This document shows, piece by piece, positions 3,086-64,000 of a stretch of DNA of 64,000 nt. The notes beneath the pieces are model-generated. The model had not been told where the DNA came from. It ran no database searches and saw only the letters and a program-made list of their open reading frames with translations. This stretch comes from a phage: sequence record PZ445534.1. One strand, given 5' to 3'. Numbering within the stretch: position 1 is the first letter of the stretch; each line of letters starts with the position of its first letter. The translations under genes and the position numbers were made by a program.

Positions 3086-3585
3086 TGGCTGAAGTTATCT
3101 CTATTTCAAATGCTACACGAGTGCATTCGTATAGAGGTGTTCTTATTATCACTGACAAATTATCTGTAGAGGCTGGCTCAAGGGTCAGCCTTTCAGGTTA
3201 TGTAAGTGATGGTGGAACCTCTGACGTTTTCACTATTTGTAGGTTACTTGATGCACCAATGAGTGGAAAACCGTTTATTTCAGGAAATTGTAGTGAAATT
3301 GTTAAAATTCCATTTGACAGTTCATGCCTTTTGGGTGTAAAGTTATATAACTGCGAGAATAAACGTATCAATGTTAATAGCATTGAAGCCGCTTTCATTA
3401 CCCTCGATACTGCATTTCAATCTCCAATGACAGTTAATAAAGAAACAAACAGACTTGAATACATTTTTTCACAAAATGATTACAAAGTACTTGTCAAAGG
3501 TAAAGTATATGATATGATTGTAAATGTGGTAGATGAATCTGGTAACCATTCAACAGTCCTTAAACAAAAAGTAAGGTTTAATTAA
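3085..3585 (+). CDS. hypothetical head-module protein
   Basis: 166 aa ORF translationally coupled (ATGA overlap) to portal gene. Confidence 0.4.
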   Translation: MAEVISISNATRVHSYRGVLIITDKLSVEAGSRVSLSGYVSDGGTSDVFTICRLLDAPMSGKPFISGNCSEIVKIPFDSSCLLGVKLYNCENKRINVNSIEAAFITLDTAFQSPMTVNKETNRLEYIFSQNDYKVLVKGKVYDMIVNVVDESGNHSTVLKQKVRFN

Positions 3586-3917
3586 TGGGAACATTAACTA
3601 TTGATGGTAAGAACAAAATCCTCGCCACGCTAACCCCAACGACTATTATTTTACACAATGTAGACCCAACGGCAGACCCTACAGCAAATAAGGTTACTCA
3701 GCCAGTGGCTATTTATTTTTCTGAACCGGATAATGGCTTAATTGCCTCAGAAGACACAGTTAATATTACTGTTCCAGCTTCTGCAACGGTCTCACACTAT
3801 AGCTTGTGGGATGCTAACGATAAATGCGTGGCAACTGGTGCTCTTAGCAAACCTCAATTCTTTGCTGAAGAAGGTATCTATGTTATCTCTTCAGTCTCTG
3901 TAGATTTAAACAAATAG
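3585..3917 (+). CDS. hypothetical head-module protein
   Basis: 110 aa ORF coupled to upstream ORF. Confidence 0.4.
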   Translation: MGTLTIDGKNKILATLTPTTIILHNVDPTADPTANKVTQPVAIYFSEPDNGLIASEDTVNITVPASATVSHYSLWDANDKCVATGALSKPQFFAEEGIYVISSVSVDLNK

Positions 3918-62649: not shown

Positions 62650-63435
62650 ATGGGTATTGTAAAAATCATCAATGGCGATATCTTTGCCGCATTTGATAAA
62701 GGTAAGTTTGACATTATTGGTCACGGTTGCAACTGTATGAATTTAATGGGTGCAGGTATCGCTGACAAGATTTCTAAACTTTACCCAAAAGCATATGAGA
62801 CAGATACAGAAGTCTATCTATATGCAGGTGGCATAGGTCACAAACCCTGTGAAAATTTACTGGGTAATTTCTCTGTAGCACGTTTAAAACAAGGTCGTAT
62901 AGCTAACCTTTACACTCAGCTTAAGACTGGTAAAGATGCCCGATACAGTGCTTTAGAGTCATCTTTGAAGCAACTTAACAGATACTGTGAAGTTAATCAG
63001 TTGAAGAAAGTTGGTTTACCTATGATTGGTGCAGGTATCGGTGGACTTGACCCTCAAGCCGTCACAGTTATCATCAATCAGGTGATGAAGAGCGTAGATG
63101 TTTATCTATATGTCTATGAAGGAGAGATGTACCATAAGTTACTCTCAGGTTGGAAGAACTACTGTGAACCAGAATACTTTGCAGGTGTAGCAGTGTTCAC
63201 AGATAACGCAGTTACCCTCTTCAGACGAAGAAAAGGTAAGATACATCAAAGTAACCCTCCGGTTGAAAAGATGTCTCTAAGTAACGCTCTAGTTACCCAC
63301 CTGTCAAAGAGCAATCACAGAATTGCTGTAACATTTGGTAGTGATGCAGAAGCTTATATCTATGCAAGAACTGATGAGGATATTGAGGCAATCTTCTCTT
63401 CACCAGAAGTTACCTTCTTAGACGCAAAGAACTAA
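62650..63435 (+). CDS. macro-domain (ADP-ribose binding/processing) protein
   Basis: 261 aa; macro-domain-like blocks IINGDIF...IIGHGCNCMNLMGAGIADKI and VGLPMIGAGIGGLD (cf. YmdB-type GDIT...NAAN...GGGGV and FPAISTGVYG). Confidence 0.5.
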   Translation: MGIVKIINGDIFAAFDKGKFDIIGHGCNCMNLMGAGIADKISKLYPKAYETDTEVYLYAGGIGHKPCENLLGNFSVARLKQGRIANLYTQLKTGKDARYSALESSLKQLNRYCEVNQLKKVGLPMIGAGIGGLDPQAVTVIINQVMKSVDVYLYVYEGEMYHKLLSGWKNYCEPEYFAGVAVFTDNAVTLFRRRKGKIHQSNPPVEKMSLSNALVTHLSKSNHRIAVTFGSDAEAYIYARTDEDIEAIFSSPEVTFLDAKN

Positions 63436-63508
63436 GAAACTCTGTAGGATATTCACAATAGACTAAGCCTTTCTTATCTGGTAAATTTTTCAGGTAAGGA
63501 GGGCTTTT

Positions 63509-63687
63509 TCATTTCAGATTTGTGCAGGTAGAGTTCTGTAGAGAAATCTATAGAGAAAATTTTGAACTCCAAAGAGAAAATTCATTCTCAAACTGTGCAG
63601 GTAATCTCCAAAGAGCTTTTTCATTTTCAAAACGTGCAGACCCCGCTCAGGTCGGGCAAGAAAAATCATTTTAGAATTGTGCAGGTA
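63509..63687 (+). repeat. four imperfect direct repeats (~22 nt, TTCATTTTCAAANTGTGCAGGTA) in non-coding region
   Basis: Copies at 63509-63530, 63581-63603, 63620-63640, 63665-63687; spacing 72/39/45 nt. Confidence 0.6.
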
Positions 63688-63706
63688 GGTTTTTATAGAC
63701 AGCCAG

Positions 63707-63742
63707 CCCAACCCCTCTCCCCCTCTTACTCCCCCTCTCCCC
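63707..63742. repeat. polypyrimidine C-tract; opposite strand has G-quadruplex-forming potential
   Basis: CCCAACCCCTCTCCCCCTCTTACTCCCCCTCTCCCC; complement has five G3+ runs with short loops. Confidence 0.6.
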
Positions 63743-63863
63743 AAAAGTCAAGAGAAAAATTTGTAGCGGATTGAAAAATAATTCTTGATTTGCGTTCTGT
63801 TTTGTGGTAGTCGTGCGCACCCGTTTCATTACAGTTTTGCCAAAAATATTTTTAAAATTTTTA

Positions 63864-63892
63864 TTGACTCTTTGAACGTGGTTATCTAATAT
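63864..63892 (+). promoter_or_regulatory. sigma70-like promoter TTGACT-17-TAATAT
   Basis: TTGACT 63864-63869, 17 nt spacer, TAATAT 63887-63892, ~65 nt upstream of ATG 63959. Confidence 0.4.
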
Positions 63893-63958
63893 TTGCATCA
63901 ACGGAGAGGGAATAACCTTCCCCACTAAATAACTAACCTTAAACTAGGAGACTCTAAA

Positions 63959-64000
63959 ATGGCATATCGTGCACCTAAATTCATCAATAAAGACAACTTT
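63959..64000 (+). CDS. 5' end of a CDS truncated by window edge
   Basis: ATG with upstream AGGAG RBS; open to window end (MAYRAPKFINKDNF). Confidence 0.3.
   Translation, partial: MAYRAPKFINKDNF

Follow-up and report, generated by a model that had tools for sequence, protein, structure and literature searches.

A C-rich tract with quadruplex and triplex potential in the non-coding early control region of Felix O1-like phages

What kind of element is a stretch of 36 nt with 25 C, 8 T, 3 A and no G at all, set in an AT-leaning phage genome (GC content 37-42%)? The tract, CCCAACCCCTCTCCCCCTCTTACTCCCCCTCTCCCC, occupies positions 63707-63742 of the window, by which we mean the whole stretch of 64,000 nucleotides of record PZ445534.1 analysed here, and both its location and its letters are as given in a preliminary description of this DNA. 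The term polypyrimidine used there is slightly generous, given that 33 of the 36 positions are pyrimidines and the run is not a pure one. The judgement that the tract is atypical of its surroundings stands: its 25 C per 36 nt are the maximum of the 64 kb, against a mean of 6.6 (sd 2.4). No second copy with up to three mismatches occurs in the window, the tract appeared in none of 100 dinucleotide-preserving shuffles, and repeated CCCCCTCT units make it up. The tract is real, statistically extreme, and unannotated in genomes sequenced since 2003.

Sequence comparison identifies the window as a Felixounavirus genome, that of a Felix O1-like myovirus of the Ounavirinae, and 225 phage records match the 600 nt surrounding the tract. 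To our knowledge, the early control region, the replication origin and the temporal regulation of Felix O1-like phages are undescribed. The tract lies within a 524-nt non-coding region, and the order of elements is macro-domain gene, terminator, four iterons, tract, conserved box and strong early promoter, as follows:

62650-63435, plus strand: macro-domain ('phosphatase') gene, upstream of the tract
63465-63506, plus strand: intrinsic terminator-like hairpin followed by a T-run, closing the macro-domain operon; a terminator is annotated in wV8 and ASO1A
63509-63700, plus strand: four direct repeats of iteron type, TTCATTTTCAAAnTGTGCAGGTA, found nowhere else in the window and conserved out to Erwinia phage phiEa21-4
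63688-63742: allelic segment of 52-55 nt, either type A (C-rich) or type B (GGGTGCAGGTGGGGATGTCGCCATTTCTCACAAGGCTACCACATCTGGAAAT), of the same length and with identical flanks
63707-63742, plus strand: C-rich tract with C-runs of 3, 4, 5, 5 and 4, its minus strand forming a five-run quadruplex (G4) motif
63710-63744: perfect mirror repeat, 16+3+16, AACCCCTCTCCCCCTC-TTA-CTCCCCCTCTCCCCAA, a layout of the H-DNA/triplex type
63743-63766: conserved box, AAAAGTCAAGAGAAAAATTTGTAG, directly 3' of the tract; a 30-nt bin that includes the box shares 93% identity with Mooglevirus Mordin
63864-63892, plus strand: strong sigma-70-type promoter, TTGACT-17-TAATAT, with an A/T-rich upstream region

The tract had been described as lying just after a direct-repeat array and about 120 nt before a promoter, and so it does, with the array ending at about 63700 and the promoter starting 122 nt after the tract. 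This promoter, annotated as such in ASO1A and labelled repeat DR_6 in wV8, drives the first in a row of small genes that each have a promoter, and the genes examined downstream of the tract (in wV8, ekra and Felix O1) are all on the plus strand, reading toward the right end. In the closest relatives (ekra, LF82P1/P3, NRG857CP1 and LF110P1) about 480 extra bp that the window does not have follow right after the promoter. They comprise a small gene and a duplicated RBS region (positions 2040-2560 of the ekra locus, L002, relative to window 63960), and this apparent insertion in the best BLAST matches was rejected as related to the tract, being an extra small gene beyond the promoter. A hairpin-capable segment at 63640-63657 of the window, GACCCCGCTCAGGTCGGG, alternates with GA(T/G)AAAAATCAGGTCGGG in relatives, independently of the tract allele.

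The first question is whether the tract has the structural potential attributed to it. The preliminary description had read a G4-forming pattern on the opposite strand, and the letters bear this out, with G-runs of 4, 5, 5, 4 and 3 separated by loops of 3, 7, 3 and 2 nt. No other G3+N1-7 quadruplex motif occurs on the two strands of the 64 kb, and prediction agrees, the G4Hunter score being -2.36 and the next strongest in the window about |1.6|. A G4-aware fold of the G-strand reaches -27 kcal/mol, compared with -15 when G4 is disallowed, and neither strand of the tract, as DNA, has any Watson-Crick fold (0 kcal/mol), which rules out a hairpin or cruciform. The tract thus shows each canonical mark of a quadruplex sequence: at least four runs of at least three G, loops of 1-7 nt, a high score and no competing duplex. 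To this we add a feature absent from the preliminary description, the mirror repeat at 63710-63744, the only one in the window with arms of at least 10 nt. Each arm comprises 14 nt of pure pyrimidine, or 16 nt with the flanking AA, and the spacer is TTA, which is the homopurine/homopyrimidine mirror with arms of at least 10 nt and a short spacer expected of H-DNA. The suggestion that the C-strand could form an i-motif or triplex is likewise upheld in silico, by i-motif-capable C-runs and by the perfect mirror symmetry. By virtue of its motif, C-runs, mirror symmetry and lack of an ordinary hairpin, the tract therefore qualifies formally as a G4, i-motif and H-DNA sequence. Its predicted structural potential is supported in silico and better founded than when first proposed, and it is the window's only strong quadruplex- or triplex-prone sequence.

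Comparison with known sequences of this kind shows both likeness and difference. As in H-DNA mirror repeats, the tract is a perfect mirror with pure-pyrimidine arms and a 3-nt spacer upstream of a strong promoter; unlike in those, relatives tolerate purine interruptions in one arm. Since the arms are C-rich, a pyrimidine-motif triplex would require cytosine protonation. The surveys in PMC8036883 offer another parallel, in that the tract has a canonical G3+N1-7 x4 motif with a G4Hunter magnitude above 2 and is intergenic, near a promoter and rare in an AT-rich genome, although those surveys are statistical. In a literature search we found no description of the tract, its mirror symmetry, its fixed post-iteron position across the subfamily or its allelic replacement. 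The tract is a new, well-delimited example of a known sequence-motif type.

Another possibility is that the tract encodes something. On the minus strand, a 76-codon ORF at 63514-63744 spans the iterons and is carried as 'hypothetical protein' in mistaenkt, Bas63 and Mordin, so that the G-rich strand might provide the Shine-Dalgarno sequence, which it does resemble, and the N-terminus of a small gene. A frame of 65-110 codons is indeed open in many relatives. However, two of the three minus frames are open because the repeat unit contains no stop codons, and the substitutions (10 synonymous and 23 non-synonymous) show no excess of synonymous changes, the synonymous fraction of 0.30 falling within the 0.18-0.36 of the other five frames. 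One variant gains a stop, wV8 has a frameshift, Mooglevirus has a truncated or switched frame, and there is no PHROG match. A small minus-strand gene is therefore highly improbable, and protein coding by the tract on either strand was rejected given the missing PHROG match, the missing synonymous bias and the frame broken in relatives. Rfam covariance models run against both strands of 63300-64000 gave no match at E<=1.

The preliminary description had also entertained a terminus-associated structure, and this part of it fails. UAB_Phi87, which carries the tract, was shown by Bal31 digestion and run-off sequencing to have direct terminal repeats of 608 bp (PMC4837284), and Pr103Blw, also a carrier, has 581-bp repeats determined by PhageTerm (PMC8303462). 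The Pr103Blw record annotates these repeats at both ends, 6.1 kb downstream of the tract, which puts its tract about 6.1 kb (6.9%) from the right physical end. The Pr103Blw terminal-repeat sequence is absent from the window. In other records this sequence is found 3.8-6.6 kb past the tract, and in five of them the first position of the record coincides with the repeat. Given the mapped terminal repeats, the tract is internal, about 7% of the genome length from the right physical end, and the ends lie outside the window in repeats of 581-608 bp. The genus terminal repeat (positions 1-581 of locus L038, about 3.8-6.6 kb past 63742 in relatives) is packed with short repeats of the CTTGTTAA/CTGTTAAGA type. 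A terminal-repeat homolog from Felixounavirus is also contained in GU169904.1 (135884-136463), labelled 'Staphylococcus phage SA1', and the intergenic region of the tract is contained in MG065664.1 (69858-70361), labelled 'Campylobacter phage A132'; both records are probably chimeric or mislabelled.

What may have lent appeal to a genome terminus, packaging site or terminal-repeat boundary at the tract is that several contigs and two GenBank records end inside it. At least five sources contributed assemblies that stop within the tract or next to it, and two Nextera indexes could be identified among them. IMG/VR contig 003641 ends in ...CTCTTACTCC, and its other end consists of Nextera adapter and then CCCCAAAAG, with about 6 nt missing between its ends; contig 009833 has the same end point and runs into the same i7 index (N718). 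Contig 004180 (i7 N705) starts with adapter followed by CTCTTACTCCCCC. A side observation is that this contig is chimeric (about 3500-3698 of locus L007), joining phage to GC-rich non-phage DNA at the equivalent of window position 63656. Contig 001525, which is Mooglevirus-like, was assembled as a circle and opened at the tract, its ends overlapping by 55 nt. Of the two GenBank records, EC106 ends in ...CTTACTCCCC, about 215 bp after this being missing, and Andreotti stops where the tract starts, with a snap-back artefact. The contig ends that fall at the tract are adapter-capped, k-mer-overlapped, snap-back or chimeric assembly artefacts, and with the ends of two carriers mapped downstream, the published end determinations and the terminal-repeat mapping refute a terminus or packaging site at the tract, a reading whose chance we put close to nil.

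The breaks deserve attention in their own right. If an 87-kb circle were opened at random, about 0.2 breaks at the tract would be expected among the approximately 125 tract-bearing assemblies, and type-B contigs in the same dataset are never broken at the equivalent place. Three contig ends are capped with Nextera adapter, and the capped fragments keep at most three C-runs each. This suggests an in vitro polymerase or tagmentation problem, the simplest reading being that fragments with the whole tract are lost in PCR-based tagmentation libraries, through polymerase blockage or a Tn5 insertion hotspot. A Tn5 insertion hotspot, or assembly trouble with low-complexity sequence, could produce the breaks with no folded structure involved. 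They are circumstantial signs of unusual behaviour of the tract in vitro and say nothing on function. In practice, the tract is an apparent recurrent break point in Nextera-based assemblies of Felix O1-like phages; some 'incomplete' or oddly opened genomes are so because of breaks at the tract, which should not be taken for genome ends.

Whether the tract is conserved has a two-sided answer. It is kept in three genera, type A being carried by part of Felixounavirus, including Felix O1 itself, and by Suspvirus and Mooglevirus. On the other side, type B replaces it in about 145 of 256 GenBank records (about 55% of Felixounavirus records), type A accounting for about 110 of the 256, where alleles were assigned by identity bands. 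Type B, found in most Felixounaviruses including Bas63, is unrelated to type A and not C-rich; in content on the other strand it offers only a weak two-tetrad G-rich stretch with a G4Hunter score of +1.52. In Bas63 (about 1250-1303 of locus L042) it shows a duplicated GTGCAGGT alongside this weak plus-strand G-rich stretch. Both alleles sit between the same invariant flanks, …GTGCAGGTAGGT and AAAAGTCAA…, and they occur interspersed among phages whose flanking macro proteins share 95-99% identity with that of the window, which argues for cassette-like recombination. Given that more than half of the genus has type B, no essential function can depend on the tract.

Among type-A carriers, what persists is composition and run structure rather than exact sequence. 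All 15 distinct type-A variants from Felixounavirus, Suspvirus and Mooglevirus have at least four C-runs with loops of at most 7 nt, and in none of the 15 is there a G between the outermost C-runs. Under random substitution at Mooglevirus divergence (10 of 36 positions) the motif survives in only 6-9% of trials. In the more distant phiEa21-4, which shares the layout of the region and whose macro gene is only 47% identical to that of the window at the nucleotide level, a block with 14 C in 20 nt stands 24 nt past the last iteron, compared with 23 nt in the window (corrected p ~5e-4); this block has three C-runs only. Mirror scores are 13-16 of 16 in Felixounavirus and Suspvirus and 11-13 of 16 in Mooglevirus, where A interrupts one arm, and the changes in the wV8 tract are asymmetric across the mirror arms. 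The tract is 72% identical to that of Mooglevirus Mordin, near the 65% of 4-fold sites in the neighbouring gene, whereas the surrounding non-coding core (iterons and box) is 77-97% identical, above that 65%. Outside Ounavirinae, the core 15-mer CCCCTCTTACTCCCC recurs in many IMG/VR contigs (L043-L162), mostly of 50-120 kb, in a different conserved context, ACCCCTCTTACTCCCCATATAACGTCT, that has no C-tract. These contigs are probably crAss-like, and a spread of the core beyond the subfamily was rejected, the matches being due to chance or to this crAss-like context.

A regulatory role, as raised in the preliminary description, is possible. We tentatively favour the view that the tract is a dispensable non-coding DNA-structure element of the early control region that insulates against read-through. 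The control region separates the macro-domain operon from the block of small genes, each of which has a strong promoter to itself. According to the twin-domain model of supercoiling, negative supercoils gather upstream of a strong promoter. Negative supercoiling behind the early promoter 122 nt downstream could thereby drive the tract out of the B-form, into a bottom-strand quadruplex, a top-strand i-motif or an intramolecular triplex. Since the G-rich strand is the template for rightward transcription, the folded tract would act as a local barrier and supercoil sink, and may in this way shield the iterons and early promoters against transcription that runs on from the upstream operon. We infer both the folding in vivo and the insulating effect. 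The element is both modular and dispensable, more than half of the genus carrying an allele of equal length that is not C-rich. In favour of a structure element we count the unique and extreme motif with its perfect mirror, the lack of a competing hairpin, the C-runs kept in all type-A variants, the C-rich block of phiEa21-4, the well-conserved surroundings and the assembly breaks at the tract. Several points count against it. Type B replaces the tract in more than half of the genus, and the block of phiEa21-4 has three C-runs only. The identity to Mooglevirus is close to the neutral level, and the A interruptions in the Mooglevirus arms weaken the triplex potential. In addition, the upstream intrinsic terminator may already stop most read-through, which would leave little for a barrier at the tract to do.

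The near-neutral identity is equally what one would expect if only length mattered. The tract could be a length-constrained spacer, in which the distance of about 52 nt from the last iteron to the box and promoters is what counts, and the C-richness arose by expansion of CCCCCTCT and was kept by descent. That the tract is built of such repeated units fits this explanation, as does the fact that type A and type B are of exactly equal length between identical flanks but wholly different in composition. The region also tolerates disruption: in the S17 sheet of the PhageMaP data for Bas63, a type-B phage, fitness scores are positive for insertion mutants of 'gene 96', located over the iteron array, and no row is given for 'gene 97', located over the type-B segment. 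However, a mere spacer does not readily account for at least four C-runs in 15 of 15 variants across three genera when random outcomes would retain them so rarely, nor for a C-rich block at the same offset in phiEa21-4 despite the divergence of its macro gene. The mirror symmetry, moreover, reaches the flanking AA on both sides, beyond the repeat unit. We regard the spacer explanation as possible but doubtful.

Conservation of composition more than of sequence would also suit a site that acts as RNA. All flanking genes have the C-rich strand as their sense strand, so read-through RNA from the tract would be G-free, C-rich and untranslated, and might recruit host Rho at a loading (rut) site, with transcription ended before the early promoters. 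The 36-nt core is 69% C and lacks G, 24 YC dinucleotides fall within the 81-nt region, and a predicted fold of the read-through RNA leaves most of the tract unpaired (0.63 compared with 0.48 overall). Like the rut/nutR boxA region of lambda tR1, it would give C-rich, G-poor untranslated RNA downstream of a gene. The central CCCCCTCTTAC presumably resembles the rutA/boxA segment of lambda tR1, and we take the core CCCTCTTAC to resemble lambda boxA, CGCTCTTAC. The likeness to a lambda nut site ends there, as there is no boxB-like hairpin in or after the tract, which speaks against a nut site of the lambda type, and the segment is short; nor do we know of any N-like antiterminator in Felix O1-like phages. 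Furthermore, with a core of only 36 nt the tract is not outstanding in the window by the usual 78-nt C/G measure and is not among its top sites, a good intrinsic terminator precedes it by 200 nt, nothing C-rich takes its place in type-B phages, and the block of phiEa21-4 is only 20 nt long. A literature search found no transcript map for a Felix O1-like phage. On balance we consider Rho loading unlikely.

The neighbouring iterons raise a different possibility, namely that tract and iterons belong to an origin of replication or a DNA-entry control module, for example as an R-loop or priming zone in the event that the G-rich strand is transcribed leftward from a promoter in the box. The iterons are the single such cluster in the window and stand next to A/T-rich DNA and promoters. 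On the minus strand, the conserved box (AAAAGTCAAGAG; window 63743-63754) carries TTGACT in Felixounavirus, Suspvirus and Mooglevirus and TTGACG in phiEa21-4. At 17 nt past the minus-strand TTGACT there follows TAAGAG in type A or TG-n-TAGCCT in type B, and the corresponding sequence of phiEa21-4 is TTGACG-18-TATACT. On these motifs the box may hold a leftward promoter that a consensus scan would miss. Against it, the scan for a minus-strand sigma-70 promoter near the tract was negative, and the arrangement found by hand in type A, TTGACT-17-TAAGAG, has a poor -10.

The same question extends to the iterons as binding sites and to the position of the locus. We know of no work on two-step injection or replication origins in Ounavirinae. 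The injection-stop (iss) region of phage T5 has conserved untranslated repeats and DnaA boxes about 8% from the genome end (10.1101/866236). Both loci are conserved, non-coding and repeat-dense, a few percent from a physical end and beside small early genes, and the iterons of phiEa21-4 (TGTGCATAG/A; 1470-1610 of locus L040) are near-DnaA boxes, agreeing at 8/9 positions with the DnaA-box consensus that 10.1101/866236 quotes. The Pr103Blw locus is about 6.1 kb (6.9%) short of the right end, with the examined downstream genes on the plus strand toward that end, and this layout recalls the first-step-transfer region of T5. In contrast, the iterons of the window match the DnaA box at only 6/9 positions, and the likeness to the T5 region is a resemblance only; there are no DnaA boxes in the window's intergenic region and no enrichment of them across the window. 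The term 'C-rich' does not occur in the T5 paper (10.1101/866236). The viability and positive fitness of insertion mutants in the iteron-array gene of Bas63, in the part of the data available, also speak against an origin or entry site, as does the description of positions of about 46-66 kb in that phage by its authors as uniformly non-essential. An origin or entry role is therefore quite unlikely. The fuller proposal, that iterons and tract form one cis-acting module for replication initiation or T5-iss-like DNA entry about 7% from the right end, in which the G4 or H-DNA would work as a primer, R-loop, unwinding zone or protein-independent barrier, strikes us as an equally long shot.

Seen as a whole, the tract is a modest curiosity, since it lies in a control region that is non-coding and conserved, does not mark a genome end and gives way to a different sequence in more than half of the relatives. 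Nevertheless, it marks a non-coding module conserved across the subfamily, consisting of terminator, iterons, C-tract, box and promoter, in phages that are widely used in Salmonella and E. coli typing, biocontrol and therapy. The two natural alleles provide a ready-made comparison for whether non-B DNA matters in a lytic phage. If the module of iterons and tract, with its folded structure as the working part, were indeed real, it would, as far as we know, be the first case of a conserved non-B DNA element with a function to be described in a virulent enterobacterial myovirus, and type B would represent a natural loss- or change-of-function variant of it.
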